In this document: positions 935 to 30,700 of the stretch, one piece after another
Position numbering within the stretch: position 1 is the first letter of the stretch
How the letters are laid out: each line of letters opens with the position of its first letter
Assembly (NCBI GenBank): GCA_036794765.1
Contig: DAIRGB010000002.1
Span: 1-34,522, forward strand
From: Patescibacteria group bacterium
GTDB lineage: Bacteria; Patescibacteriota; JAHJAL01
Direction of reading: 5' to 3'
Length of the DNA: 34,522 nt
Translations under genes and position numbers: made by a program
The notes under the pieces: model-generated
Told to the model about the DNA's origin: nothing
The model's input: only the letters and a program-made list of their open reading frames with translations
Databases searched by the model: none

Positions 935-3190
935 TTGATGAATAATTTGGATAACAATTTAGAAGTAAAAGAATATATTGTAAAATTGCCTCAACAGACT
1001 AGTTTTCAGGTAGAGGTGTTTAGTGATTTTTTGAATACTTTGTCAAAAATCTTGAAGGGTGTGCCGTTTTCCTGGACTCTAAATATGATTAATAAGAGGA
1101 TTTTTTATACGGTAAAGGTGTCCTCAAGGTATTATAGCGTTATGGAAAACCAGTTGTATTCGGTTTTTCCAAAAATTGAATTGGAAGAGGTTAAACGTAA
1201 TATCAGTCCGAAAAATATTGAAGGGGTGGCAAGAGCGGTTTTGACTTTGAGACACGGGGATTTTTATCCGTTTTTGTTGTTTAATCAGTTGGAAGGATCG
1301 TTTTTAGCCGATTTTTATAATCAGTTTAATCGGTTGGCGGTGACAGATGGCTTTTATTTTCAGGTAAAAATAAGGCCAATGGATAACGACCAAATGATAT
1401 TTGTTATGAAAAGGTCGTTGGCTTTGACATTGAAGCGAATTAGAGAAAGATTTAATTTTTTGGATATATTGTTTTCTAAAAAATCATCGAATGAAGTTCG
1501 TAATAAAGCTTTGGTGGCGGCAAAGGAGAAGAATAAGCAAAATTTATATTATACCGAAATTGATTTATTGATTTTTGCGGAAAATTACCAGATGGCGCAG
1601 GCGAAGTTGGAGCCGATTGCGCAAGTTTTTCAGAAATTGGAAAGTGAATTCAATGAATTTTCTTATAAAATAAAACCGGTTACTAGGGTTGATTTGGAGG
1701 AAATTACTTCGTTGAATTTTAGTAAAAAATCAATGTATATGACGGCGGACGAGATTAGTACTTTTTATCATTTTCCGCCTGACACGGATGCGGTGCCGAA
1801 TTTGTACAAAATTTTGTCTCCAAAAGCAGAGCCACCGTTGGGTTTATCAACTCCTGATAATACGCCGGCGGAAGAGTTGTGTGTTTTTGCCAGGACAAAT
1901 TATCGAAATATCAAGGAGTTGTTTGGAATAAAAAGAAGAGATAGGGCCAGACATATGTATATTATTGGTAAGTCTGGTTCAGGAAAATCGAAAATGCAGG
2001 AATTGTTGATAAAAAGTGATATTGAAAACGGTCATGGTGTTTGTGTGATTGATCCACATGGTGATTTGATTGAAGATATTATTCCTTTTGTTCCACAAAA
2101 TCGGATTAAAGATGTAATTTACTTTAATCCGGCTGATGAGGCTTTTCCAATATCTTTTAATCCGATCGAAAAAGTTGATCCGGTTTATCGGCAACAAGTG
2201 GCAATCGGTTTTATAGAGATTTTTAAAAAAGTATTTGCGGCCAATTGGTCACCCAGACTGGAACATGTTTTGCGGATGACGGTGCTGGCTTTGTTGGATG
2301 CTCCGAAAGCTTCTGTAATGTCGATATTATTATTGTTGACTGATCGAGAGTATCGTCAGGAAGTCATTAAAACGATTAATGATCAAGTGGTAAAGAATTT
2401 TTGGACAAATGAATTTGCCAGTTGGTCGGAAAGATTTGATTCGGAAGCAATAATGCCGATATTAAATAAAATTGGTCAATTTGTTTCCAATGGTTTGATT
2501 AGAAATATCGTTGGGCAAGAAGAGAATAAGCTGGTTTTTTCGGAAATCATGAATAATCGGAAAATCTTGTTGGTAAAATTACCAAAAGGAATATTGGGAG
2601 AGGAAAATACTTCTTTGTTGGGTTCGATGATAATTACCAAAATATATCAGGCAGCGTTGGCGCGGGCGGATGTGCCGGAAAGTCAGCGCGTTCCTTTTTA
2701 TTTGTATGTTGATGAATTTCAAAATTTTGCAACGGATTCTTTTGCCAATATTTTGTCTGAGTCGAGAAAATATAAGTTGAGTTTGACGATAGCTCACCAG
2801 TATGTGTCGCAGTTGTCTGATGTGGTGCGTAAAACGGTGTTTGGGAATGTTGGTTCGATTGTTTCTTTTCGATTGGGTCCGGAAGATGCATTGTTGTTGG
2901 AAAGAGAATTTGAACCCCGTTTTAAAGCGGCTGATATTACCAATCTGGGTGTGCAGGAGGTTTATCTAAAATTATCAATCAATGATGAGGTAAAAGAGGC
3001 ATTTTCGGCACGAACTTTGGATGCGGTGACCGTGACTACGTCTTTCAAAGATGAGATTGTAAAAAATACACAGCAAAATTATTGTAAAACCAGACAAGAA
3101 GCGGAAAGAGAAATCAGTCGGGAAAAATCCAAAGAGATGGAAGTATTGGAAAAATTAAAAGAAGACAATTTTTCCGCCCCGATTTTATAG
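935..3190 (+). CDS. VirD4/TraD-like (type IV coupling protein family) P-loop NTPase with a ~330-aa uncharacterised N-terminal region
   Basis: Walker A IIGKSGSGKS, HGVCVIDPHGDL, Walker B FYLYVDEFQNF and LTIAHQY, as in TraD/TraG/VirD4 ATPases. The start may be TTG 935 or ATG 938. Confidence 0.8.
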   Translation: MMNNLDNNLEVKEYIVKLPQQTSFQVEVFSDFLNTLSKILKGVPFSWTLNMINKRIFYTVKVSSRYYSVMENQLYSVFPKIELEEVKRNISPKNIEGVARAVLTLRHGDFYPFLLFNQLEGSFLADFYNQFNRLAVTDGFYFQVKIRPMDNDQMIFVMKRSLALTLKRIRERFNFLDILFSKKSSNEVRNKALVAAKEKNKQNLYYTEIDLLIFAENYQMAQAKLEPIAQVFQKLESEFNEFSYKIKPVTRVDLEEITSLNFSKKSMYMTADEISTFYHFPPDTDAVPNLYKILSPKAEPPLGLSTPDNTPAEELCVFARTNYRNIKELFGIKRRDRARHMYIIGKSGSGKSKMQELLIKSDIENGHGVCVIDPHGDLIEDIIPFVPQNRIKDVIYFNPADEAFPISFNPIEKVDPVYRQQVAIGFIEIFKKVFAANWSPRLEHVLRMTVLALLDAPKASVMSILLLLTDREYRQEVIKTINDQVVKNFWTNEFASWSERFDSEAIMPILNKIGQFVSNGLIRNIVGQEENKLVFSEIMNNRKILLVKLPKGILGEENTSLLGSMIITKIYQAALARADVPESQRVPFYLYVDEFQNFATDSFANILSESRKYKLSLTIAHQYVSQLSDVVRKTVFGNVGSIVSFRLGPEDALLLEREFEPRFKAADITNLGVQEVYLKLSINDEVKEAFSARTLDAVTVTTSFKDEIVKNTQQNYCKTRQEAEREISREKSKEMEVLEKLKEDNFSAPIL

Positions 3191-3199
3191 ATATTGTGA

Positions 3200-3331
3200 T
3201 GGTGGTAAAAATATTTTGCACTCTTAAAAATTTTACTCATGATAACGCTGTGAATGACGATGGCTAAGAATCTTTTTTGACGCCCGGATCATTTGTAAAA
3301 TTTTTAAGAGTGCAAAATATTTTTACCACCA
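3200..3331 (+). repeat. Hairpin A1: 36-37 bp perfect inverted repeat (3200-3236 / 3295-3331) around a 58-nt loop of family A
   Basis: Arms verified base by base as exact reverse complements. The loop is tcatgataacgctgtgaatgacgatggctaagaatcttttttgacgcccggatcattt. It begins 10 nt after the stop of the VirD4-like gene. Confidence 0.9.
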
Positions 3332-3421
3332 GTTTTGGATTGGATGATTTTTTGTTAGAAGACACTTGCTGCTGGAGTGTCTTTCTTTTTATACTGTAGA
3401 TGTATATTTAATCAAAGGAAT

Positions 3422-3841
3422 ATGTCTTTAAAGACTTATTTTGTGGGGATTGCAATTTCAACTTTTTTGGCGTGGTCGGCGTTTTATTTGACTTTGACCA
3501 ATATTGATCCATTTGTAACAGATAAAGCCGGTATGGCGTCATTTTTTGTCAGTATGTTTTTGGGTATTTTAGGTTTGGTGATTTTGATTTTGATATATTT
3601 TCGTTCACGAGTATATTCGGTGGCAGAGTTGTATGAAAAAATGCCGGTGATTTTGCGTCAGGCTTTTCTGGTTTCTTTTTTTTCGACAGCGGTAATCGGA
3701 ATGCAGGCGATGAGGGTGTTGAGGTGGTGGACGGCTTTGATGTTGATGATTATTGTGATTTTGGTGGAAATGAGTTTTTATATAAATACTTTTAAGTTTG
3801 AGGAAATTAAAGAGTTGGAGAATGATGAGGAAAAAGAGTAG
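3422..3841 (+). CDS. Small polytopic membrane protein (about 4 TM helices), hypothetical
   Basis: ATG 3422 is preceded by aaggaa. Strongly hydrophobic segments throughout. The GTG 3377 start in the ORF track is less likely. Confidence 0.6.
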   Translation: MSLKTYFVGIAISTFLAWSAFYLTLTNIDPFVTDKAGMASFFVSMFLGILGLVILILIYFRSRVYSVAELYEKMPVILRQAFLVSFFSTAVIGMQAMRVLRWWTALMLMIIVILVEMSFYINTFKFEEIKELENDEEKE

Positions 3842-3859
3842 TTATTGTGATTTGCGACC

Positions 3860-3960
3860 GCAAACTTGAATTATGTGAATTTAATATTTTTTAAACTAGA
3901 TGTTGGGATTGATGAGTTTGTAACAGTAAAAAATATTAAATTCACATAATTCAAGTTTGC
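3860..3960 (+). repeat. Hairpin B1: 33 bp perfect inverted repeat (3860-3892 / 3928-3960) around a 35-nt loop of family B
   Basis: Arms verified as exact reverse complements. The loop is aaactagatgttgggattgatgagtttgtaacagt. It begins 19 nt after the stop of the membrane-protein gene. Confidence 0.9.
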
Positions 3961-3986
3961 TACTCAAGTATTTTTGCAGTGTTCTT

Positions 3987-4102
3987 AAATTTTCAATTTA
4001 TAATTTTCAATCAATTTAAAATTACTCAATGTTTCAATGTTTGTAAGTTGAAAATTGGCTTATTAAAAATTGATTGAAAATTAGAAATTATAAATTAAAA
4101 TT
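3987..4102 (+). repeat. Element D1: imperfect inverted repeat built from AT-rich heptads (aattttN / Naaaatt), with a loop containing aaattggctta
   Basis: A 17-bp perfect core (4001-4017 / 4067-4083) has outer heptads paired across a 6-nt bulge. It ends 8 nt before the pheS ATG. Confidence 0.6.
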
Positions 4103-4109
4103 ATTCTAT

Positions 4110-5147
4110 ATGTGGGAAAGATTGGAAAAAATTCGGCAGGATGCTTTGAGTGAGATAAAAAAGATTAAGGAATTGGCGGTTTTGGACGAGACGAAAATAA
4201 AGTGGTTGGGGAGAAAAAGTGAGTTGACGGAATTGCTGAGGGGTTTGGGAAAAATTTCTCCGGAGGAGAGGCCAAAAATTGGACAAAAGACCAATGAGAT
4301 AAAAAGAGAGATTGAGCAAGCTTTGGATAATATTAAAATTGTTTTGCAACAAAAAGAGAATGATCGATCTTTGACGGCCGATTTGTTTGATGTGACGTTA
4401 CCAGCTCGTGATGCTAGAATTGGCCATTTGCATCCTTTGACCAGAACAATGTTGGAATTGGAGGATTATTTTGGTCGGATGGGTTATATGATTTATGAAA
4501 CGGAAAATTTGACCAATGAGTATGAAAATTTTGAAGGGGTGAATATTCCGGCTGATCATCCGGCGCGGGGAATGTGGGATACGTTTTGGGTAAAGGGGGA
4601 AGAGAAAAATAAAGGAAGATTGTGTATGGCGACTCACACTTCAGCTTTTCAAAATCGGATATTGCGGGAAAATAAGCCTCCATATAAGGCAGTGGCGTTG
4701 GGCCGATGTTTTAGACGGGAAGCGACTGATGCTACCCATGAACATACTTTTTACCAAATTGAAGGGGTTATAGTTGATAAAAAATTATCTGTTGGCAATT
4801 TGAAAAAGACTTTGATGGATATGGTGCAGTATATTATTGGTAAAAGAGTGCCGATCAGATTGCGTCCGAGTTATTTTCCGTTTGTGGAACCGGGGTTTGA
4901 GGTGGATGTGCAATGTGTAAAATGTCAGGGTAAAGGTTGTGGAATGTGCAAGGGCAATGGTTGGATCGAGATGTTGGGGGCGGGGATGATTCATCAAAAT
5001 GTGTTTGTGGAAGCAGGTTATAAAAGAAATGAATGGACAGGTTTTGCTTATGGTCCGGGATATGATCGGTTGACGATGATGCGTTATGGTATTACGGATA
5101 TTCGACATTTCTTTAACAGTGAACCGGAATTTATCGAGCAATTTTAA
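4110..5147 (+). CDS. pheS: Phenylalanine--tRNA ligase alpha subunit
   Basis: Class II core motifs (HPLT, FRRE..DATHEHTFYQIEG, FPFVEPGFEVDV, GAGMIH), plus the CxxC...CxxC knuckle seen in Bacillus-type PheS. ATG 4110 is preferred over TTG 4074, which lies inside repeat D1. Confidence 0.95.
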   Translation: MWERLEKIRQDALSEIKKIKELAVLDETKIKWLGRKSELTELLRGLGKISPEERPKIGQKTNEIKREIEQALDNIKIVLQQKENDRSLTADLFDVTLPARDARIGHLHPLTRTMLELEDYFGRMGYMIYETENLTNEYENFEGVNIPADHPARGMWDTFWVKGEEKNKGRLCMATHTSAFQNRILRENKPPYKAVALGRCFRREATDATHEHTFYQIEGVIVDKKLSVGNLKKTLMDMVQYIIGKRVPIRLRPSYFPFVEPGFEVDVQCVKCQGKGCGMCKGNGWIEMLGAGMIHQNVFVEAGYKRNEWTGFAYGPGYDRLTMMRYGITDIRHFFNSEPEFIEQF

Positions 5148-5177
5148 ATTAATAGCGACGTGAAATGTTATTTTGTG

Positions 5178-5304
5178 GTTTGTGTAAAATTTTTTGGTAT
5201 TTAATATTTTGCTCATGATAACGCTGCGAAGGACGATGTCTAAGAACCTTTTTGACGCTCGGATCATTCGCAAAATATTAAATACCAAAAAATTTTACAC
5301 AAAC
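5178..5304 (+). repeat. Hairpin A2: 35 bp perfect inverted repeat (5178-5212 / 5270-5304) around a 57-nt loop of family A
   Basis: Arms verified as exact reverse complements. The loop is tcatgataacgctgcgaaggacgatgtctaagaacctttttgacgctcggatcattc, differing from the A1 loop by 6 substitutions and 1 indel. The arms are unrelated to the A1 arms. Confidence 0.9.
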
Positions 5305-5351
5305 GTATTTTATGAGATTGGTTTAAATAGCAAAATTTTAAGAGGAATTTT

Positions 5352-7787
5352 ATGTTGTACTCATATAATTGGTTGAAAGATTATTTGGATGAAGAGGAAT
5401 TGAAAAAGCAAAAATGGACGGCGGAGAAGATTGGGGAGAGGGTGTCTTTGACCAATTGGGAATGCGATGGGGTGGAGAAGATTAGATTTTCCTGGCCGGG
5501 AGTGGTGATTGGAAAGGTTTTAAAAGTTGATAAACATCCCAATGCCGACAAATTGAGTGTGGCGATGGTGGATGTAAAGAAAGAAAAATTACAAATTGTG
5601 TGTGGGGCCAATAATTTGGCCAAGGGAATGTTGGTGCCGGTGGCTTTGGTGGGGACGAAATTGAAGGAAGGTTTTGAGATCAAAGAAATAGAGATCAGAG
5701 GGGTAAAAAGTACCGGGATGATTTGTGCGGCGGAGGAGCTGGGTTTGGAAGAAAAATCGAGTGGGATTTTGGATTTGGGAAAGGATTTACCGATAGGGGT
5801 GGAATTGGATAAGGCTTTGACTTTTGATGATGAGGCTTTGGAGTTTACTATATTGCCCAATCGTCCGGATGGGATGGCAATGATTGGGATGGCGAAAGAA
5901 ATCGGATTGGCGACGGGAGTAAAGTATTTTGAGCCAAAATTCAAATTTAAAGAAAATAGTGCCAAAAAGATAGACAATATGTTGGAGGTAAATATTAAGG
6001 ATCCGGAAAATTGTCATCGATATTCAGCGCGAGTGATTGATAATGTAAAAATTAAAGAATCGCCGTTGTGGTTAAAAAGAAGGTTGATTGTGGCCGGGAT
6101 GCGGCCGATTAATGCGGTGGTGGATATTACCAATTATGTGATGTTGGAATATGGTCAACCGATGCATGCCTTTGATTATGATTTGCTGATCGGACATAAA
6201 ATTTTTGTCCGAAAGGCCAAAAAAGGTGAGAGGATAGTGACGCTTGATGGTCAGAAAAAGATTTTGAGTGATCATGATTTGATTATTGCTGATGAAAAAA
6301 GACCTTTGGCATTGGCGGGGATTATCGGGGGCGAGGATAGCGGAGTGTTAAATAAAACCAAAACTATTGTTTTGGAAAGTGCGAATTTTGCCAGGCAAGT
6401 GATAAATAATACTAGTCATGAACAGGGTGTGGCGACTGATAGTTCGATCAGGTTTGGGAAGGGATTGCCGGCGAGTTGGACTATTAAAGCTTTAGAAAGA
6501 GCAACGTATTTGATTGTAAAGATTTGTGGTGGCGAGGTGGTGCGAGGAATGATTGATGTGCGTTCAAAGAGATTGTTGAAAAATGAGATTGAATTGGAGT
6601 ATGAATATTTGAATTCATTTTTGGGAGTGGATGTACCAAAGACTGACGTAAAAAGAATATTGAAGGATTTGGGATTTGAAATCGGGAAGTTTGGTGATGA
6701 ATCTTTGTCGGTAACTGTTCCGGATGACAGGATTGACGTGGAAGGTGCCGAAGACTTGATAGAGGAGGTGGGTAGGATTTATGGTTATGACAAAGTGCTG
6801 GAAACGACTTTTTCGATGGCGGTGGATTTGCCGCGGCCGGAAAAAAAGCGTCAATATAGAAATAAAATAATAAATTATTTTTTCAATAAGGGCTGGTCGG
6901 AAGTTTATTCTTATAGTTTTGTGACCGGGAAAAATGTTGTTGATTGGGGCTTTGAATTGGAAAATAGTTTTGAGTTACTCAATCCGTTGGATCAGGATTT
7001 GAAATATTTGCGGCAGTCGTTGGTGGCGGGATTGGTGGAAAAATATCGAAAGTGGTCGAAATATGATGAGGTAGTGCAGATATTTGAATGGGGGAAGGTT
7101 TATTCCAAACTGGATAAAGATAAAGAGAGGACGAAAATAGGACTGGTGTGGGGCGAGGACAAAAATGCAAAGGATTTGTTTTTGGCGGTCAAAGGTTTGG
7201 TTGAGGGTATATTGGCGCTAGGGGGAAGGAAAATCGAGCAGTTTGAATTGAAACGGGCGGAACAGATTGATGAACAGATCGAATATTTACACCCGGTGAA
7301 TAGTTTGGTGATTGTTGATGAGCATGGGCGGATTTTGGGTTCATTTGGTTTGCTACATCCGAGAATATGCGGAAATGAAAAATTGAAAAAAAATTTGGTA
7401 TATGGTGAATTTGATTTGAATAATCTGGTGGAAAATTTTGATGAAATGTATCGATATCAGGAATCGTCAAAATTTCCGGTGTCAAAATTTGACGCGGCGT
7501 TTTTGGTTGATTGGGAAGTGATGGCGAGGGATTTGATAAAAGAAGCCGAAGCGGTGGACAAAGATTTGCTTAAAAAAGTGGAAGTTTTTGATGAGTTTGA
7601 GATTGATGGTTCAAAGTTTAATGTTGAAAGTTTGAAAGGAAATACTGGGCGAAAAAAAAGTGTGGCTTTGCGTTTTTATTGGCAGGCGGAGGATCGGACT
7701 TTGTCGGATGAGGAGGTTAATGGTTTGATGGAAAAAATATATAGTGTGTTGAAAGATAAGTTTGGGGCGTTGTTGAGGGATAGGTGA
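5352..7787 (+). CDS. pheT: Phenylalanine--tRNA ligase beta subunit
   Basis: 811 aa. N-terminal MLYSYNWLKDY, a tRNA-binding (EMAP/OB) domain, B3/4 and B5 regions and a C-terminal FDX-ACB-like end. RBS agagga lies upstream. Confidence 0.95.
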   Translation: MLYSYNWLKDYLDEEELKKQKWTAEKIGERVSLTNWECDGVEKIRFSWPGVVIGKVLKVDKHPNADKLSVAMVDVKKEKLQIVCGANNLAKGMLVPVALVGTKLKEGFEIKEIEIRGVKSTGMICAAEELGLEEKSSGILDLGKDLPIGVELDKALTFDDEALEFTILPNRPDGMAMIGMAKEIGLATGVKYFEPKFKFKENSAKKIDNMLEVNIKDPENCHRYSARVIDNVKIKESPLWLKRRLIVAGMRPINAVVDITNYVMLEYGQPMHAFDYDLLIGHKIFVRKAKKGERIVTLDGQKKILSDHDLIIADEKRPLALAGIIGGEDSGVLNKTKTIVLESANFARQVINNTSHEQGVATDSSIRFGKGLPASWTIKALERATYLIVKICGGEVVRGMIDVRSKRLLKNEIELEYEYLNSFLGVDVPKTDVKRILKDLGFEIGKFGDESLSVTVPDDRIDVEGAEDLIEEVGRIYGYDKVLETTFSMAVDLPRPEKKRQYRNKIINYFFNKGWSEVYSYSFVTGKNVVDWGFELENSFELLNPLDQDLKYLRQSLVAGLVEKYRKWSKYDEVVQIFEWGKVYSKLDKDKERTKIGLVWGEDKNAKDLFLAVKGLVEGILALGGRKIEQFELKRAEQIDEQIEYLHPVNSLVIVDEHGRILGSFGLLHPRICGNEKLKKNLVYGEFDLNNLVENFDEMYRYQESSKFPVSKFDAAFLVDWEVMARDLIKEAEAVDKDLLKKVEVFDEFEIDGSKFNVESLKGNTGRKKSVALRFYWQAEDRTLSDEEVNGLMEKIYSVLKDKFGALLRDR

Positions 7788-8037: not shown

Positions 8038-9120
8038 ATGAAGAAAATATTTTTATTTCTTCAAATTTTTCTGACGGCTGGAGCGCTGTCAATTTTTTTA
8101 TTGAATGGTTGCGGAGGCGGAGGTGGGGGAGGCAGTACAATTGCTGATCCTCAACCGACATTTACTGCGACATTTTCTACTCCTGTTTTTACCTTCACAC
8201 CTATTGCCTCGGCGACGGCTGGGGCAACCATGACTTCAACAGTAGTGTCGGCTACTGTGACCGCTACTGTAACTAAAACGGCGGCTCCGACGGCAATTTC
8301 TCCGTCTGTGACTGGAAAAATTATGGGGATGTTTTTCGGTTCCGCGGTCAGCGGGGCTAGTGTTACCTTGGGTAGTGAATCTGGCACAACGGATACCCAG
8401 GGTAATTTTTTAATTGCCGGAACAACGGGGAGGATGGTGATAAAAATGGGAGGCTATTATGATTATAGTTTTCCAGTCACCTCCTCTACCTTGGAAATTT
8501 TGCTTGTTGGTGCCGATATGAACAACGTTTCATATTCCTCTTATTTTATAAGGGGAAATTCGAAACGTTGGTTAAAAATTCCTAAGTTTCGAATCAATGA
8601 AAATATAACTGCCGCGCAAGCGGCGGTTATTAAAAAAATAATTATTAATGAAGTATCTGCTCTGACCGGGAATTTTATTAAAGTTTCCGAGTCAGAAATT
8701 TTATCAACAGCTTCAACCGAGCCCGAACAGGGCGAGGTTGTTATTTCAATGGATAATGCGGCGACAAATTCGTTTGCAGAGTTATCATACTCTGGCAACG
8801 AAATTGTTGCCGTTAAAATAGTCCTCAGGGACGAGGACTTGTCTTTGAATGAATACTCATGCCGGACTATTCGGCATGAGTTAGGTCATATGATTGGGTT
8901 GAATCACCCCTTTGAAAGTTTGGGGTGGGATTCACCCGATTTACCGATTAGTGTGATGAACTACGTTAACGACAAAAAGAAGTACTCGTTAACGTATAGT
9001 GAGTTTGATTTGAAAACCGGTACACGAAAGTATAGCCGAGGGGCGGGAAACCAGCTTCCGGACTATGATCCAGATACGCCTCTCGGTAAAATAACAAAAA
9101 TAACAAAAATAATATTATAA
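8038..9120 (+). CDS. Secreted lipoprotein, metzincin-type zinc metalloprotease
   Basis: Signal peptide with lipobox LLNGC, then a Gly7 and Thr/Ala-rich linker. A CarboxypepD_reg-like segment (VTLGSESGTTDTQGNFLIAG) follows. Catalytic motif HELGHMIGLNHPF (HExxHxxGxxH) with downstream SVMNY. Confidence 0.75.
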   Translation: MKKIFLFLQIFLTAGALSIFLLNGCGGGGGGGSTIADPQPTFTATFSTPVFTFTPIASATAGATMTSTVVSATVTATVTKTAAPTAISPSVTGKIMGMFFGSAVSGASVTLGSESGTTDTQGNFLIAGTTGRMVIKMGGYYDYSFPVTSSTLEILLVGADMNNVSYSSYFIRGNSKRWLKIPKFRINENITAAQAAVIKKIIINEVSALTGNFIKVSESEILSTASTEPEQGEVVISMDNAATNSFAELSYSGNEIVAVKIVLRDEDLSLNEYSCRTIRHELGHMIGLNHPFESLGWDSPDLPISVMNYVNDKKKYSLTYSEFDLKTGTRKYSRGAGNQLPDYDPDTPLGKITKITKIIL

Positions 9121-9385: not shown

Positions 9386-9491
9386 GGATTTTAATTTGAT
9401 GCAATTATTTTTAACTTTTTAAACAAGAGGTTGGGACCAATAAGAGCTTAACTGTAAAGAAGTTAAAAATAATTGCATCAAATTAAAATCC
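9386..9491 (+). repeat. Hairpin B2: 35 bp inverted repeat (9386-9420 / 9457-9491, one T:G pair) around a family-B loop
   Basis: The loop is aaacaagaggttgggaccaataagagcttaactgt(a). The only non-Watson-Crick pair is t9418:g9459. Confidence 0.9.
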
Positions 9492-9510
9492 TTTAGTAGG
9501 TATTGAGGCC

Positions 9511-9615
9511 GGATTCCAATTGAATATTATTTATTTAACTTTTTTAAACGAAATGTTGGGACCAATAAGAGCTTAACGGTAAAGAAGTTAAATAAATAAT
9601 ATTCAATTGGAATCC
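9511..9615 (+). repeat. Hairpin B3: 35 bp inverted repeat (9511-9545 / 9581-9615, one T:G pair) around a family-B loop, in tandem with B2
   Basis: The loop is aaacgaaatgttgggaccaataagagcttaacggt, with 4/35 differences from B2. The T:G pair (t9542:g9584) is at the position equivalent to that in B2. Confidence 0.9.
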
Positions 9616-9683
9616 TTTACTTGATCATAGATAATTTAATTTAAAAATAATTGGTAAGATAAAATTTTTATGGGGAGAAAAAA

Positions 9684-19611: not shown

Positions 19612-19675
19612 AATTTTTTAATTTTTAATTTTTAATTTTTAAAACAAATTGGCTTAAACATTAAAAATTAAAAAC
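19612..19675 (+). repeat. Element D2: four aattttt heptads plus a 14-bp AT hairpin (19629-19642 / 19661-19674), with a loop containing aaattggcttaaaca
   Basis: Co-linear with D1 on the + strand (T-rich heptads, then aaattggctta, then ttaaaaatt). Lies just upstream of the glgP start codon. Confidence 0.6.
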
Positions 19676-20959: not shown

Positions 20960-22189
20960 TTACTCATACCTGAGGGCGGTGATTGGATCGAGATTGGCGG
21001 CTTTGTTGGCCGGATATAATCCGAAAATTATTCCAAAGATAGAAGCGACGACGAGGGATAAGATCACGGATATAGGAGTAATTTCGGGGCGGAGAGTCGA
21101 AAATATTTGGACCATCAAGGTTGTAAAATATCCAAGAAGGATACCCACAACTCCGCCGATAATAGTTAGGATGACAGCTTCGATTAAAAATTGAGTGCGG
21201 ATATCAGGTATGGTGGCGCCCAAGGCTTTGCGCAAGCCAATTTCACGAGTGCGTTCAGTGACAGAAACGAGCATAATATTCATTATACCAATGCCGCCGA
21301 CGATTAAAGAGATAGCGGCGATGGCTCCAAGTAAGATTGATAATATTCCTGTGATTTCTGAAAGAATGTCCAGGGCTTGTTTGATATCATAAATAGTAAA
21401 ATCGTCGTTGGCTGGGTCGGTGATGTTGTGGCGATTGCGCAAAATCGTGCCGATCTGTTGTTTGGCGATTTCCAAAGATTTGCTGTTGGTGGCTTGAATA
21501 TTGATATCAAAGAGATGATTAATACCTAGCAGTTGTTTCTGAGTAGTGGTAACAGGTAAATAGATGACTTTGTCTAGATCCACTCCGTCTTCATTGCCTT
21601 TGTCTTCGGTAATCCCGATAATTGTAAAATTGATTTGGTTAATTTTTATGGTTTGCCCGATGGCTTTTTGGTTGGGAAAAAGTATCGTGGTTACTTTGGG
21701 ACCAACTACAGCCAAACGACTTAAGCTATTAACTTCTTTTTCATCAAATATTCTGCCTTCGACAATTTTGACATTGCGAATGGTAAAATATTCTGCTGTG
21801 CTGCCAAAAACTGTGGCGTTCATTTCGCCCAGGGGAGAGGAGGTTTTGAATTGACCGCGAACTTCGGGGGCGACTAAGTCTATTGCGGTGCCGATCGAGG
21901 AATTTTTTAAAGCTTCGGCGTCGTTGTAGGTCAAGCTGGTGATACTTAATCCTTGTTGAGAGGGTGGAGCGGAAAATTCGCTGTCGGATTTCCCCGGGAC
22001 GACTACGATCAGGTTGTCACCGACAGTGGCTACCTGGTCCAAAATATAGTTTTCTGCGCCTTTGCCGAGAGCCATGAGAGTAATAACGGAAAAAATACCG
22101 ATAACAATGCCCAAAATTGTCAAAAATGCACGAATTTTATTTTTGAAGATGGCATTGACCGATATTTTTATTAATGATAGTAGGTCCAT
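20960..22189 (-). CDS. ABC transporter permease, MacB/FtsX family (paralogue 2)
   Basis: MacB_PCD-type periplasmic domain between TM1 and TM2. C-terminal FtsX motif GGIGIMNIMLVSVTERTREIGLRKALGA. Confidence 0.9.
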   Translation of the reverse strand: MDLLSLIKISVNAIFKNKIRAFLTILGIVIGIFSVITLMALGKGAENYILDQVATVGDNLIVVVPGKSDSEFSAPPSQQGLSITSLTYNDAEALKNSSIGTAIDLVAPEVRGQFKTSSPLGEMNATVFGSTAEYFTIRNVKIVEGRIFDEKEVNSLSRLAVVGPKVTTILFPNQKAIGQTIKINQINFTIIGITEDKGNEDGVDLDKVIYLPVTTTQKQLLGINHLFDINIQATNSKSLEIAKQQIGTILRNRHNITDPANDDFTIYDIKQALDILSEITGILSILLGAIAAISLIVGGIGIMNIMLVSVTERTREIGLRKALGATIPDIRTQFLIEAVILTIIGGVVGILLGYFTTLMVQIFSTLRPEITPISVILSLVVASIFGIIFGLYPANKAANLDPITALRYE

Positions 22190-22198
22190 AAAATTTAA

Positions 22199-23434
22199 TT
22201 ATTGGAAACGCAAGGCTTCAATGGGGTTCAATTTGGCGGCTTGGTTGGCCGGATATATGCCAAAGACTAAACCAAAAATGGTTGAAACGCTGATAGCCAG
22301 GAAAATAGACAATAATGACACAGAGGCTTTTAATGGCGTAAAGGCACTGATTAAAAAAGTTATGCTGGCGCCGGCGATAATGCCGATAATTCCACCTAGG
22401 AGAGTGATAAAGACCGCTTCAGCTACGAATTGCCAAAGGATGTCATTTTTTTTGGCACCAATTGATTTTCTCAAGCCGATTTCTTTGGTGCGTTCGGTGA
22501 CAGAAACGAGCATGATATTCATAATACCGATGCCGCCGACCAAGAGAGAAATAGAGGCGATGGCGGCTAGAAATAAGGAAAAGGCATTGGTGATATTGTT
22601 GACGATGGAAAGAGCTTCTTTGGTGTCATTGATAATAAAATCAGGTTTTTCACCGTCTTTAATGTTGTGGCGATTGCGTAGGATGTTTTTGGCTTGGTCG
22701 GCGGCGAGTTCAGTGGTGTTTTCCGAATCGGCTACAGCGGAAATACTATTTACGTAATTGATTCCCAAAATTAGTTTTTGAGCAGTGGTGATTGGAATAT
22801 AAACAATTTTGTCCAAATCGACACCGTATTGGCCCTGACCTTTTTCTTCGGTGATGCCTATTACTTTAAAATTATAGTTGTTGATTTTTATGTCTTCGCC
22901 TATACCGTCACTGTTGGGGAAGAGATCTGATTTGGCTTTTGGGCCCAGGACGGCAACTCGGCTTAAAGATTCGGTTTCTCTTTCTTCAAAGGAACGGCCG
23001 GAAACAATTTTGGTGTTGCGAATAGAAAAATATGAGGGTGTGGTGCCATAAAATTGGATTAGTTTTTCGTTGAAGACGGAAGACACGGCAACTTGGCTAC
23101 CGACAGTGGCAGTGGTGTCGGAGATATTGGGGGCTAGCGGGTTGTTTTTGAGGGCTAAAGCGTCGTCGTAAGTAAGGGTAGTGATTACAATACCGGAAAA
23201 GGAAGCGGGGGCGGAAAAGCCTTCTTCTTCTGGTGTTCCGGGGAAAATATTTACTATGTTGCTTCCCAAAGAACGGACTTTGTCCAGGATATAAGTTTGA
23301 GCGCCATCACCAAGGGCCATAAGAATAATGACGGACGAGATGCCGATAACCACTCCAAGAATACTTAGAAAAGTCCGACTTTTGTTGGATAACAAGGCTT
23401 GCAAGGCTAGTTTTAGGGTGACTGAAAAAGGCAT
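22199..23434 (-). CDS. ABC transporter permease, MacB/FtsX family (paralogue 1)
   Basis: Same architecture as the neighbouring permease. Motif GGIGIMNIMLVSVTERTKEIGLRKSIGA. Confidence 0.9.
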   Translation of the reverse strand: MPFSVTLKLALQALLSNKSRTFLSILGVVIGISSVIILMALGDGAQTYILDKVRSLGSNIVNIFPGTPEEEGFSAPASFSGIVITTLTYDDALALKNNPLAPNISDTTATVGSQVAVSSVFNEKLIQFYGTTPSYFSIRNTKIVSGRSFEERETESLSRVAVLGPKAKSDLFPNSDGIGEDIKINNYNFKVIGITEEKGQGQYGVDLDKIVYIPITTAQKLILGINYVNSISAVADSENTTELAADQAKNILRNRHNIKDGEKPDFIINDTKEALSIVNNITNAFSLFLAAIASISLLVGGIGIMNIMLVSVTERTKEIGLRKSIGAKKNDILWQFVAEAVFITLLGGIIGIIAGASITFLISAFTPLKASVSLLSIFLAISVSTIFGLVFGIYPANQAAKLNPIEALRFQ

Positions 23435-24628: not shown

Positions 24629-26521
24629 TTATTTTTTAAGAATAATTACTTCTTCTCCTTGTTTTAGACCATTGATAATTTCGGTTAGGCTGTTGCCGCG
24701 TAGGCCGATTTCGACTGGTTTGGTTGCTGTTGTATTTGTTTTTTGATCTTGTATAAATTCGATGACATTTTGTCCATTTTCTTTTTTGATTGATTGATTG
24801 GGTACGGCCAAAGCATTTTCTTTTTCAGCGGTAATAATTTCAATATTGGCGGTCATACCCGGTTTTATTTTTTCATCCTGACTTTCCAAGATTACTTTGG
24901 TTTTGTAATATACAACGCCTTGAATGATAGTGGCGGCGGGGTCGATTTTGACAACTGTACCATCATATTGTTTGTCTTTGGAAAAGGCATCAAAGTCGAT
25001 TAGGGTTTTATCACCGATTTTTATTTTGTCGATATCGGTTTCGGCGATGTCGGCATTGATTTCGAATTTAGCATTGGATTGGAGTTGGATGGCGGGATTG
25101 GCAGAGGTGCTTTGTTCTCCCAGACTAACATTGATTTGGGTAATTGTTCCATCGATAGGGGCGACGATTTGAAGATTGGAAAGTTGTGCTTCTATAACTT
25201 TACTGGCAGCAGTAGCTTGGGCGACTTGGGCCTGGGCGACAGCAATGGCAGCGGCGGTAGGACCGGCTTTTTTTAGTTTGAGTTGTTCTTGTTGAGTTTT
25301 TAGTTGATCTTCAGCGTTTTTAACTTGTTCTTGAGAGTTGTTTAGTTTGGTTTCGTTACCAATTTTGGTAGTAACAATATTTTCTTCAGCAGTTTTGGTT
25401 TGATTTTCTTATGATATGACTTGGTTTTTGGCGTTGTCGATAGAGGTCTGATTACTCATTTTGGTGTTCTCGATGGCATTGGAAAGATTTTGGGCACTGG
25501 TCAGATTGGAATTGGTAGTAGCTTCATTGCTGGATTGCCGACTTTTGAGAGTGGCCAAATCGGAAGCGGAAAAGAAATATTTGGCATTTTCGGAGTATAA
25601 AAAGAAATTGGTATTGTTTAGAATTTGACTGACAGTATTGATGTAGGCGATGGTGTCGTCGGTGGCTTTTTGGGTGTCGATTTCCGTTTTGGTGGTTTTA
25701 GCAAGATTATAGCTAGATAACGCGGTTTGATACTTGAATTTGGAGTCTGAAAGCAAATTATCACAGTTGGCAGTGCGGATAAAATCAATATTTTTGAAAA
25801 TGTTGTACCAGGTGTTGTTGTCAAATATTTCCTCGATATTGGCCTGGGCTGACAATTCGCTGATGAGAATAATATTGATTTGGTTTAGATTGCTGTCGAT
25901 AGTGTTAATCAGATTTTGTGATGTTTGGTTATTGATATTGGTAAGATTGGTGCGTGATTCGTTGAGTAGTTTTTGAATATTATTTAGATTAGTTTGGGCT
26001 TGTTGGTTGCTATTTTCGATTTCCTTTTTGGTTAATTCGTGATTATTTTTAGCGTTATCAAGAGTATTTTTGGCGTTTTGCACGTTCACTTCTTGAATTG
26101 AAATTTCTTCGGGGCGGTTACCTTCTTGAACTTGCTTGAGTTGAGCTTGAGCAACGGCGATGGAAGCGCGAGATTGGTTTAGTTGGCTGGTTATTTCATT
26201 TGACTCCAAACTAGCCAGAACCGTACCTTTTTTCACAGAATCACCAACTTTGACGTCAATGTTTTCTACGTTACCGGCACCTTTGAAGTTTAAGTTTAAT
26301 TCGTCAGCTGGTTTGATGGTGCCTGTTACTTCTACGCTTTGGCGAATATTTTGAATCTTCGCTGCTTCGGTAATGTAAGGTGATTCTTGAGGTTTGGAAT
26401 ATTGCCAATAGCCGATACCGATAACGGCTATTACTATGATGATTATGAGCCAGAGCCACCACCAGGATTTTTTCCTGGGTTTGAGAAAGTCGTTTGCTTG
26501 ATTATTTTGATCTTGAGCCAT
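24629..26521 (-). pseudogene. HlyD/MacA-family membrane-fusion adaptor interrupted by one in-frame TAA (25409-25411)
   Basis: My manual minus-strand translation shows the same frame continuing straight through the TAA. Upstream are the TM helix, lipoyl half 1 and a long coiled coil. Downstream are more coiled coil, lipoyl half 2 (IVAPIDGTITQINVSLGE), the beta-barrel and the membrane-proximal domain. There is no start codon or RBS just after the stop. Confidence 0.8.
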
Positions 26522-27464: not shown

Positions 27465-28229
27465 CTAGAGATTTTGATTGAGTTTTATATATAATAAAAA
27501 TTCTTTATTGCCTTTGGGGCCGAGGAGGGGGCTGGTGGTTTCGTTTATGATGGAAAAATTGTTTTCTTGACAAAATTGCCGGAAGTTTTTTTTGACGAGT
27601 TCGTGAATTTTGGGGTTTTTGACAACACCTTTACGTAAGTTTTTTGGTCCGGCCTCAAATTGGGGTTTCAATAAGCAAACAATTTTTAATTTATAATTTT
27701 TAATTTTTAAACAATTTTGGTTGAGATATTTGGAGAAGATTTTTTTTAGATGAGTCAATATTGTGATTATGGAGATAAAGGAGGTGTCGATGACTACAAG
27801 ATCGATTTTTTCAGGTAAGTTGTCCCAATGGCGGAAGTTGGTTTGTTCCAGACTGATTACTCGAGGATTGATTTTTAATTTGTCGGCGAGTTGGTGGGTG
27901 CCGACGTCGAGCGCAAAGACTTTTTTGGCGTCATTTTGTAGTAAGCAGTCGGTGAAACCACCGGTAGAAGCACCAATATCCAAACAAACGTAATTTTTGG
28001 GCTTGATTTTGAATTCTTTAAAAGCGTGTTCGAGTTTGAGACCGCCGCGGCTGACGTATTTTAGTGGTTGGTTAATGGTGATAATTGAGTTTTGATCAAC
28101 TGTTTGGGAAGGCGAAATCGCTTTTTGTTGGTTAACAAAAACAAGACCCAAGCGAATGGTTAATTGGGCTTGGGATCTTGTAGATGATAGTTGGCGCGAA
28201 ACTAATTCGAGATCAAGGCGTTGTTTCAT
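27465..28229 (-). CDS. tlyA: TlyA-family rRNA (cytidine-2'-O)-methyltransferase
   Basis: N-terminal S4-like region, YVSRGGLKL, CLDIGASTGGFTDCLL (SAM site), DVGTHQL, DTSFIS and LLKPQFEAG. Confidence 0.9.
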   Translation of the reverse strand: MKQRLDLELVSRQLSSTRSQAQLTIRLGLVFVNQQKAISPSQTVDQNSIITINQPLKYVSRGGLKLEHAFKEFKIKPKNYVCLDIGASTGGFTDCLLQNDAKKVFALDVGTHQLADKLKINPRVISLEQTNFRHWDNLPEKIDLVVIDTSFISIITILTHLKKIFSKYLNQNCLKIKNYKLKIVCLLKPQFEAGPKNLRKGVVKNPKIHELVKKNFRQFCQENNFSIINETTSPLLGPKGNKEFLLYIKLNQNL

Positions 28230-29542
28230 TTGGTTTTTTTGATTGAGACGTAGTTTGAGGAGTAAGGGTTAGTAGAATTGGTTAAATAAAATTTTATCTT
28301 GAAGTTGCAGGATGAAGTTTTTTCCAATTCTTCTTTAAATTCTTGATTAACAATTTCCATAATATTGAATGGTGCTTGAGGGGTGGCTTGGAATGATTTT
28401 TTGATTGTTTCTTGGGCTTTGCCATTTTTGTCGAGAAGAATAATTTCTGTCCAGCCGGCATAATCTGTATATAGTATATCGGTGTTATTTAGATATGGAT
28501 CAAAACCGTTGTTGATATTGATCTTTCTGGCTGAAATAGTTTGGTTTTCAACTGTTGATGTATTGTTTGGGGTGTAGTTGGAATATTGAGTGGAATATTG
28601 AGTGGAATATTGTTGGGAGGGGTATTGGTTGGTGTTGTTTACTTGATAGGAGTTGGCGGGAGGAGTGAGGGGTTTGAGGGCGGGAAGGTTTCTAAGAGCG
28701 GCTTCAAAAGCAAGTTGTTTGGCGGTGTGAAGATATATTGTATTTTTTGTGTTTTCATCAACGTATTGTTCGCCGTCTGATCCGTATTGGCTGTATCCGG
28801 TAGAAAAATGATTGGTAGAAAAACCAACATTGAAGCTGTTGTAATTGTCTTTATTGCAGATTGGGCTTTCTCCGTAGATTTGGGCGATCAAGTTACCAAA
28901 TTTGTCATATACTTTGATGCCAACGCGGTATATATATGATTGGTTGGAATCAGCCGTTCCAAAATTTATCGAAAAATTATTGAAACTTATTGAGGGATTG
29001 ATGTTGCGACTGTTGTTATTCAGAGTAATCCAACCGCAATCTTCGGAATATATATTGTAGTCAGGATTGCTAGAACTGGACATATTGTCCGGCATAACCC
29101 AGTTTACTCCTGATGGGATATTATTTATTTTGACTGAAGGGCCATCATATTTTTGTTCCAAAATATTTATCTTTTCACTGTGATTGGGAAAATCTTTGGG
29201 AATAAATTGATTGCTGGAAACAGTGGTGTTTTGTTTAAGATATGTATTATTGGTGTAATCGGGATTTTTGGCAAATGATGGTGTTGGAGAGATGAATTGT
29301 GATGCGATAATTGCGGTTACGACAGCTTTTTTTAATCCGAGAGATTCAATGACGGGGTATTTTTTTTCGAGGTTGTTCAAGTAAGTACAGGTATTACCAA
29401 TATGTTTATCAAGAAAACTTTTGGGAAATTGTTCGTTAAGTTTAGCGTCTAAATTGATAATTTCTTTGGGTGAAGAAGGGTTGTTATTAAAATCTCTTGT
29501 ATTGAGTTTGCCTTCGAATTTTTTTTGGGGGAAATTTTCCAT
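28226..29542 (-). CDS. Hypothetical Asn/Ser/Thr/Tyr-rich protein with one predicted TM segment
   Basis: 438-aa ORF. Its stop overlaps the tlyA start (ATGA). Contains a QYSTQYSTQYS repeat encoded by a 12-nt tandem repeat. Confidence 0.55.
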   Translation of the reverse strand: MENFPQKKFEGKLNTRDFNNNPSSPKEIINLDAKLNEQFPKSFLDKHIGNTCTYLNNLEKKYPVIESLGLKKAVVTAIIASQFISPTPSFAKNPDYTNNTYLKQNTTVSSNQFIPKDFPNHSEKINILEQKYDGPSVKINNIPSGVNWVMPDNMSSSSNPDYNIYSEDCGWITLNNNSRNINPSISFNNFSINFGTADSNQSYIYRVGIKVYDKFGNLIAQIYGESPICNKDNYNSFNVGFSTNHFSTGYSQYGSDGEQYVDENTKNTIYLHTAKQLAFEAALRNLPALKPLTPPANSYQVNNTNQYPSQQYSTQYSTQYSNYTPNNTSTVENQTISARKININNGFDPYLNNTDILYTDYAGWTEIILLDKNGKAQETIKKSFQATPQAPFNIMEIVNQEFKEELEKTSSCNFKIKFYLTNSTNPYSSNYVSIKKTK

Positions 29543-29636
29543 ACTTGAATGTATTTATTAATTTTTTTGGTTAAATTATTGTCTTTTTTATATCATAAAA
29601 ATGCTGATAAATCAAGGTTTATGGCGATTTTGTGAG

Positions 29637-30585: not shown

Positions 30586-30700
30586 ATTTCAAGTCCGAGG
30601 ATAAATTTTATATTTTTTAAACTTGATCAAAGGTTAGAACCAATTATTTTTGATCTTCGGGACAGGTAAAAAATATAAAATTTATCCTCGGATTTGAAAT
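30586..30700 (+). repeat. Hairpin C: 33 bp inverted repeat (30586-30618 / 30668-30700, one G:T pair) around a 49-nt B-related loop
   Basis: The loop is aaacttgatcaaaggttagaaccaattatttttgatcttcgggacaggt, with an internal 7-bp helix gatcaaa/tttgatc. The only mismatch is g30593:t30693. It begins 6 nt after the yebC stop. Confidence 0.9.

Follow-up and report, generated by a model that had tools for sequence, protein, structure and literature searches.

What is a hairpin whose arms differ from copy to copy and yet pair perfectly with each other, and how does it come to lie among housekeeping genes? The question is raised by two long hairpins, A1 and A2, in a 34,522-nt stretch of DNA, contig DAIRGB010000002.1 (assembly GCA_036794765.1), from a bacterium of the Patescibacteria, or candidate phyla radiation (CPR). 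This whole stretch, called the window here, begins just 3' of dnaN/recF. A first-pass annotation had described A1 and A2 as hairpins with a shared loop and unrelated arms. The analysis reported here suggests another answer. A1 and A2 are real copies of a small palindromic DNA repeat that is probably mobile. Together with two sister families, B and C, they are real, lineage-restricted palindromic intergenic repeats and not a new class of RNA. The evidence leans slightly towards all three families being small, non-autonomous mobile DNA elements restricted to one Patescibacteria clade.

Structure of the Hairpins

The positions and the pairing first given for A1 and A2 are borne out: perfect arms of 35-37 bp enclose loops of 57-58 nt. 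Aligned with each other, the two loops match at 51 positions and mismatch at 6, with 1 gap, in agreement with the six substitutions and one indel counted before. The proposed extension of the helix by ATGAT/ATCAT can also be seen in both hairpins, beyond a 2x2 mismatch.

Structures of this kind are far from chance expectation. Seven hairpins in the window have perfect arms of 20 bp or more, and 100 dinucleotide shuffles contain none (the longest shuffled arm is 14). Fold z-scores of A1 and A2 are -10 to -13 on either strand. The loop alone has a z-score of about 0, that is, it is as stable as shuffled sequence.

The remaining five of the seven hairpins belong to the sister families B and C, which are built like A. 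A elements are 125-133 bp long and the three families together span 100-133 bp. Each element is a single hairpin of 31-42 bp perfect, AT-rich arms around an asymmetric core of 33-61 nt. In B and C the perfect arms measure 31-39 bp and have the ends TTTTTTA/TAAAAAA, and the cores measure 33-47 nt; AGGTTGGGACCAAT is common to the B and C2 cores.

A1 starts 9 nt past the stop codon (3188-3190) of a TrwB-like gene and 5' of that gene's canonical terminator, and A2 occupies the pheS-pheT spacer. A scan for intrinsic terminators (short G+C-rich stem, small loop, 3' U-tract) called none at A1 or A2.

Copies in Related Genomes

A pattern search for the A loop finds further copies outside the window, so the family is more than a local duplication of two copies. 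Three are full-length, one is partial and one is distant, and all are in closely related Patescibacteria metagenome-assembled genomes. The full-length core is matched only in MAG180 (GCA_049322675.1), whose DNA is 88-91% identical to the window. In this genome L012 holds two copies, the positional counterparts of A1 and A2, and L013 holds one. This third copy, A3 (L013/L019), lies between divergent genes, 28 nt 5' of rlmD. The partial copy is found at the end of contig L002, from a relative with 90% PheS identity; the contig stops within the loop of its A2 copy (8290-8340), which is consistent with inverted repeats breaking short-read assemblies. The distant copy belongs to a relative whose YebC is 81% identical (L017). 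No A element occurs in relatives whose PheS identity is about 71%.

Wider searches return little else. A first, stricter exact pattern of the A core had no match in genome contigs or metagenome contigs. A two-block pattern matched MAG180 and, by chance, a coding region of Solibacteraceae (L014), and a second pattern run on metagenome contigs of the Joint Genome Institute had no match. Viral contigs gave one chance match (L015), within coding sequence and without arms, and BLASTN against phages and plasmids gave none. A covariance model (R1) run on all loci found no further A copies, only weak cross-matches to C2-type hairpins and one distant copy, in L017.

Membership in a known non-coding RNA or ribozyme family, named in the first-pass annotation as an outcome that would overturn the idea of a new repeat, is not indicated by Rfam. 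At the gathering score there are no Rfam matches across the whole window; at E-value thresholds the hairpins overlap generic plant and animal miRNA-hairpin models far below the gathering score and a few weak, unrelated models. No tRNA or tmRNA was found. A ribozyme or box C/D loop was considered and rejected: UGAUGA occurs in B1 only, is not kept in B2 or B3, and there are no consistent C/D boxes.

Table 1. Positions of the hairpins, their parts and adjoining signals in the window.
Feature	Position	Strand	Description
A1 hairpin	3200-3331	+	37-bp perfect arms, 58-nt loop
A1 left arm	3200-3236	+	37 nt, pairs perfectly with 3295-3331
A1 core (loop)	3237-3294	+	58 nt; conserved ends TCATGATAACGCTG and ACGCCCGGATCATT
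A1 mini-helix ATGAT/ATCAT	3239-3243 / 3288-3292	+	
A1 right arm	3295-3331	+	partner of 3200-3236
A2 hairpin	5178-5304	+	35-bp perfect arms, 57-nt loop
A2 left arm	5178-5212	+	35 nt
A2 core (loop)	5213-5269	+	57 nt
A2 right arm	5270-5304	+	partner of 5178-5212
TTGTG motif	3194-3198	+	candidate insertion target; 1 nt 5' of A1 foot; also at the equivalent unoccupied position of L003 (TTTTGTGA, then GTTTGG)
TTGTG motif	5173-5177	+	abuts A2 hairpin foot
Intrinsic terminator of TrwB-like gene	3358-3384	+	context, outside the element; 100% identical in MAG180
B1	3860-3960	+	34-bp arms, 33-nt core; not in MAG180
B2	9386-9491	+	tandem with B3
B3	9511-9615	+	arms diverged from B2 arms; pairing kept within each element
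C1	29637-29760	+	39-bp arms, 46-nt core; divergent intergenic region; ortholog in L016
C2	30585-30701	+	35-bp arms, 47-nt core; yebC-ruvC spacer

Turnover at Identical Sites

The elements are small, non-coding, present in multiple copies and polymorphic for presence and absence: they are found or missing at identical sites in genomes about 90% identical. For instance, B1 is precisely absent from L012 of MAG180, where its flanks are 88-91% identical, and neither L003 nor L002 has A1. Between pheS and pheT, the window, L012 and L002 carry an A copy and L003 carries a C2-type copy. When filled and empty alleles are compared (A1 in the window against L003; B1 in the window against L012), neither a flanking direct repeat nor a target-site duplication is seen.

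The A1 site may have been entered twice. The window and MAG180 copies there have 65% arm identity and unlike immediate flanks, and the next 100 nt are 100% identical. Relative to the empty L003 allele, one hairpin stands before a GTTTGGAAC block and the other after it, which makes two independent insertions, about 10 nt from each other, the probable explanation.

Tandem, similar 9-10-mers, GATTTTATA(G) and GATATTGTGA, lie directly left of A1 (3180-3199). L003 has one ATTTTGTGA only at this site, which is the end of the upstream gene. C1 is also abutted by a near-identical CGATTTTGTGAG (29625-29636). These repeats are candidates for an insertion duplication or for a preferred, extended target.

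Divergence of the Arms

The arms of A1 and A2 had been called completely different, and this does not hold. Global alignment gives 66% identity, and none of 1000 composition-preserving shuffles scores equally high. Alignment of the five full A copies reveals a common layout: a G-containing outer box, AAAATATTTT, 6-8 variable nt, AATATTTT and then the loop, with AAAATATTTT and AATATTTT forming two A/T boxes. The outer ends are unlike between copies (TGGTGG, GTTTGTG, TTGAATG, CTGTTTG). A paralogs share 62-76% identity in the arms and 84-92% in the loops.

Pairing is retained through double changes. RNAalifold reports 17 pairs with double changes among the five full copies. In the arm helix alone both sides have changed in 16 of 40 pairs, and 94.5% of cells are paired; none of 500 shuffles reaches this count, and the figure for slid controls is 2-5. 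Transversion-type changes make up about half of the double changes and there are almost no G.U pairs, which points to templating at the level of DNA. G.U-compatible mismatches number two on the sense strand and two on the antisense strand, so the type of mismatch is uninformative about the strand of function. The A arms are fast-diverged homologs held paired by compensation, not unrelated sequences.

True orthologs diverge at about the background rate. Between A2 of the window and that of L012, the arms are 94-97% identical, with one compensated pair and one mismatch, and the loop is 88% identical; here the arms are better kept than the loop. C1 and its counterpart in L016 have identical arms and differ at 4 of 46 loop positions. 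The C2 pair (window and L016) differs at 6 of 35 arm positions, all compensated, and at 2 of 47 in the loop. The idea that A1 and A2 belong to a repeat family, in which long perfect arms enclose a conserved core, thus stands, with the reservations that the arms are homologous and that the loop is not always the better conserved part.

To look for a role of the arms as guides or spacers, all of them were compared by blastn-short with 170 kb of related sequence, which returned only AT-rich matches of 12-16 nt. The best match outside an element is an exact 16-mer, TGCAAAATATTTTTAC, between the A1 right arm (3304-3319) and the empty B1 site of MAG180 (L012 5724-5739). It is probably an effect of AT composition.

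Candidate Target Motif and Strand Polarity

Three features, namely the evidence for mobility, a motif at the flank and the polarity of the strands, go beyond what had been observed before. The motif is TTGNG. In 9 of 13 independent A, B and C elements it ends 0-3 nt short of the hairpin foot, on the 5' side. The background in the same test on the window's sense strand is 3%, giving P of about 1e-11 for a motif defined post hoc; the enrichment is significant even after a several thousand-fold correction. TTGNG is already present at both empty sites, as TTGTGA before G in L003 and as TTGCGATT before GC in L012, so it appears to behave as a target and not as part of the element. Extra contigs of MAG180 and of relatives (L019-L022) contained no new elements for independent validation.

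The polarity of the elements can be compared with GC skew, which has one sign throughout: +0.20 to +0.49 in the window (segments of 3-4 kb) and +0.24 to +0.53 in related contigs (segments of 3 kb). The skew stays strong even at 17.9-29.5 kb, where a block of genes lies on the minus strand. This indicates that it is linked to replication; it is far above typical bacterial values. With dnaA/dnaN just upstream, the + strand would be the leading-strand sequence and hence the lagging-strand template, given the direction of replication that the skew implies. In all 12 independent elements, on 6 contigs, the polar strand lies on the G-rich strand; within-family consistency alone gives p of about 0.002. 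A3 and C1 are located between divergent genes, and a C1-like copy (L019 7507-7637) lies between two minus-strand genes, antisense to both. Thus polarity follows replication better than transcription.

Proposed Mechanism

How might such elements spread? They would move at the replication fork, folded and in single-stranded form. An enzyme of the HUH type (IS200/IS605 TnpA or RAYT-like), or a functionally similar one encoded elsewhere, may act on them. It would read the shape of the hairpin and the conserved core ends, TCATGATAACGCTG ... ACGCYCGGATCATT, instead of a fixed terminal repeat; these ends would be the sequence-specific part of the substrate. The arms are probably kept perfect by template switching within the element (quasi-palindrome correction), and selection for foldability may have a share in this. 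Mobilisation of single-stranded DNA is proposed because the elements share with IS200/IS605 and REP/RAYT a folded structure without conserved terminal repeat, a retained candidate target, the lack of a duplication and lagging-strand polarity.

Most copies start 4-30 nt past a stop codon, on the sense strand, and the genes that flank them in the window are all housekeeping genes. This location suggests that the hairpins are co-transcribed, as long hairpins in 3' untranslated or intercistronic regions. Secondarily, they may then affect the processing of mRNA.

Several observations weigh against mobile elements of this kind. Pfam searches on 29 of the 31 predicted proteins of the window (all but pheS and pheT) found no transposase, RAYT, integrase or recombinase, and about 110 kb of related contigs yielded no gene for a transposase, Y1 HUH enzyme, RAYT or recombinase. 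Neither an excision junction nor a circular intermediate has been observed. Copy number is low, at 2 A copies per 34.5 kb. The ends of IS200/IS605 are two distinct subterminal hairpins, whereas here one hairpin spans the element. TTGNG was chosen after the data had been seen, and its distance from the foot is not fixed. The A1 site provides only a short three-way alignment, and an alternative MAFFT alignment places both hairpins at one position. Transcription and replication are co-oriented for most copies, and one element alone separates them clearly. Finally, the 81%-YebC relative, whose remaining intergenic DNA is unalignable, has the C2 core at the same site with 43/49 identity; this suggests a host-level constraint, beyond neutral drift, on at least one sister family.

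The combination of features is unusual: arms that are not conserved yet perfectly self-complementary, insertion next to TTGNG without duplication, and uniform polarity relative to replication in a CPR genome. A bolder interpretation, which we think improbable, is that these are the first examples of a previously undescribed kind of CPR transposon, a "whole-element hairpin" that is targeted to replication forks and mobilised as a single strand. Its enzyme would read hairpin geometry and the apical core instead of terminal repeats, and its stems would drift under templated self-correction. Less likely still within this interpretation, the hairpins would be orphan stem-loop RNAs for a Nop/Tas-like or other RNA-guided protein encoded elsewhere.

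Comparison with Known Systems

The closest parallels can be found in the IS200/IS605 family and its non-autonomous derivatives (PATEs). The lagging-strand template is the target of IS608 and ISDra2, which recognise secondary structure in DNA and produce no duplication (PMC5027513, PMC6006769). The A, B and C elements likewise lack a target-site duplication, have beside the insertion a short sequence, a candidate target, that is kept in the empty site, appear to depend on DNA secondary structure in place of a conserved terminal repeat, and are polar with respect to the lagging-strand template. They differ in that IS200/IS605 elements carry two unlike, short, imperfect subterminal hairpins with guide and cleavage tetranucleotides, whereas each element here is one perfect hairpin of 31-42 bp. 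In addition, neither the window nor about 110 kb from relatives yielded a TnpA (Y1) gene, and the candidate target TTGNG is 0-3 nt from the foot.

Repetitive extragenic palindromes (REPs and REPINs) with RAYT enzymes, tagged by GTAG or CGTC, are palindromes of intergenic regions as well; a short conserved tag marks their 5' foot, their stems vary between families, and a HUH enzyme is presumed to act on them as folded single-stranded DNA (PMC3733652). REPs are 20-40 nt long, G+C-rich and imperfect, with tiny loops and high copy number. In contrast, the A, B and C elements are 100-133 bp long, with AT-rich perfect arms, a large conserved core, low copy number, TTGNG as the tag-like motif and no RAYT seen.

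Classical miniature inverted-repeat transposable elements (Correia/NEMIS, ERIC, RUP, Rickettsia RPE) resemble the present elements in being about 100-150 bp long, non-coding and intergenic, in folding into long hairpins, in being co-transcribed with their neighbours and in varying in presence between strains. Their terminal inverted repeats are conserved between copies, however, and they make a target-site duplication (e.g. TA); here the termini vary between copies, the centre is conserved and no duplication is seen.

Quasi-palindrome correction would account for the arms. Template switching homogenises the arms of inverted repeats and makes compensated stems (PMC8794818, PMC8604942), and would explain perfect arms, double substitutions made in one step and the small number of G.U intermediates. 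It is a mechanism of maintenance and not a family of elements, and leaves the dispersal and the conserved core of the A, B and C elements unaccounted for.

The stem-loop TIGR arrays of CPR bacteria, which encode tigRNAs, look similar as well. Their palindromic stems vary between units and are conserved only near the loop, and the loop is asymmetric and tens of nucleotides long. The elements described here have no array, variable pair of spacers, box C/D or CUU, Pfam on 29 of the 31 window proteins gives no tas gene beside them, and their loop is conserved between units.

Alternative Explanations

The main rival to small mobile DNA elements, and one compatible with them, is that the hairpins are cis-acting RNA selected by the host, such as RNase III sites, stabilisers of 3' ends or a device that decouples pheS from pheT, with mobility incidental or absent. 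This account is unlikely, if still to be taken seriously. In its favour, the stems covary strongly, most copies have the sense orientation and the position just past a stop codon noted above, the pheS-pheT spacer is filled by some hairpin family in all close relatives, and the C2 core is kept at yebC-ruvC down to the relative with 81% YebC identity. Yet stems that are perfect by Watson-Crick pairing, with almost no G.U, and whose few transition mismatches are equal on both strands, are unlike the outcome of selection on RNA. Nor does it fit that A3 and C1 lie between divergent genes and a C1-like copy is antisense to both neighbours, that A1 precedes a perfectly good, conserved terminator, that the A loop has no stable fold, that close relatives have empty sites with no visible replacement, and that in orthologs the loops are no better kept than arms or flanks. 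A different role in transcription had been raised for A2: TTGACG in its loop and a -10 box in the right arm might form an outward promoter toward pheT, or might be a coincidence. Extended to the family, the core would be a sigma-70 promoter driving the downstream gene, which is very improbable. A2 does contain TTGACG-16-AATATT, a 9/12 match, and A3 lies 28 nt 5' of rlmD in a divergent spacer; but A1 has no qualifying match, the MAG180 ortholog of A2 reads TTAACG, and promoter-like matches in 3100-5450 are at chance level (12 against 8.6 +/- 3.0 expected). It also counts against such a promoter that pheS and pheT are normally co-transcribed.

If the hairpins act as DNA, they might instead be host signals on the lagging-strand template, for instance hairpins for priming or primosome assembly like those of sso (single-strand origins), or sites for nucleoid or replication proteins. 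Uniform polarity relative to replication and three direct RACGMY repeats in the loop agree with such a role, as does CAGCGT/GAGCGT in the loop (AGCGT-like, on the complementary strand), which we take to resemble the CS-6 box TAGCGT of ssoA origins. This resemblance covers 5 of 6 nt only, the spacing along the chromosome is irregular, and near-identical genomes differ in which elements they have, so that we see hardly any prospect for this role. A further proposal is that nothing transposes and the hairpins arose in situ, with a conserved core, or a local duplication of one, acquiring its arms at each site when template switching copied the local flank in inverted form. Long perfect stems can be created in this way (PMC8794818), and the outermost 5 bp of the B1 left arm (GCAAA) are the sequence of the empty site. 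The empty sites have neither arm nor core, however, the arms of separate copies are homologous to each other, and the same core occurs on unlinked contigs; an origin in situ is accordingly given very little weight. The same low standing is assigned to dispersed stem-loop guide RNAs of TIGR-Tas systems (tigRNAs), or other small RNAs acting in trans, a possibility weighed because CPR genomes carry tigRNAs and the description of their stems matches superficially. In CPR stem-loop tigRNAs, variable palindromic stems surround a loop with box C/D motifs and two spacers (PMC12045711; bioRxiv 10.64898/2026.09.09.750476). Their stems are conserved only next to the loop, a pattern shared by the hairpins here, and the A loop of 57-58 nt is in a plausible range. 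Against this, the Pfam survey of 29 of the 31 window proteins found no Nop/Tas, PDB sequence searches with two hairpin-adjacent proteins of unknown function gave no Tas match, and the adjacent RuvC, of 165 aa, is the canonical resolvase, encoded in a yebC-ruvC(-ruvAB) context. Single units are dispersed among housekeeping genes, without an array. From copy to copy their loops keep 84-92% identity; the point changes are scattered and do not form two variable spacers of 8-12 nt. Repeated CCA...UG boxes are lacking, as is CUU at the stem base.

Significance

CPR genomes are regarded as streamlined and poor in repeats, and it is in this setting that turnover of hairpins at about 90% genome identity matters. 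The family offers markers at the level of strains and accounts for breaks in assemblies, as in contig L002. It puts double-stranded RNA stems of 35 bp into essential operons, e.g. pheS-pheT and yebC-ruvC. It could also mislead searches for structured RNAs or stem-loop TIGR arrays, since variable palindromic stems enclosing a conserved loop are exactly what such searches look for. If a single-strand mechanism targeted to the lagging strand is correct, HUH-style transposition would extend to a new shape of substrate.

Other Repeats and Genes

The C2 core (30620-30666) reads AACTTGATCAAAGGTT...TTTGATCTTCGGGACAGG and has internal GATCAAA/TTTGATC complementarity. It is retained in the yebC-ruvC spacer of four relatives, down to 81% YebC identity, with arms that are degraded or changed, and is also found between pheS and pheT in L003 (positions of the core in relatives: L016 10720-11020, L017 10720-10870, L018 3966-4120 and L003 4774-4886). 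L016 has an extra tandem half copy of C2.

Both A loops contain a minus-strand promoter-like match (3239-3266 and 5215-5242), TAGCCA/TAGACA-16-TATCAT, at 9-10 of 12 positions. Its -10 box is the reverse complement of the invariant ATGATA block, and it would act antisense into the upstream gene. Promoter-like matches in this region are not above chance.

Two proteins were considered as Tas candidates and rejected as unlike Nop/Tas. One (360 aa, 8038-9120) is a lipoprotein with a HELGH metalloprotease motif, and the other (438 aa, 28226-29542) is of low complexity.

AT-rich imperfect palindromes and direct repeats of TTTCAAT/AATTTTTAA units are found at 3985-4099, e.g. 5' of pheS, and at 19615-19674 and 27683-27730. 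L012 has another version at the same place (5578-5713). These form a separate, degenerate class of repeats.

Synteny between the window and MAG180 ends exactly at the B2/B3 tandem (9386-9650 in the window, 1-265 in L012). GGATTTT is still common to both, and beyond it L012 has unlike sequence.

Tandem paralogous MacB/FtsX permease genes, about 70% identical in DNA, occupy 20960-23434 (repeat families D1, D5, D8 and D11). MAG180 and L017 have one 630-aa membrane-fusion gene (YknX/RND-MFP-like; L016 4684-6576). At 24629-26521 the window has separate open reading frames of 86 and 370 aa with a gap, where this gene is possibly disrupted or frameshifted.

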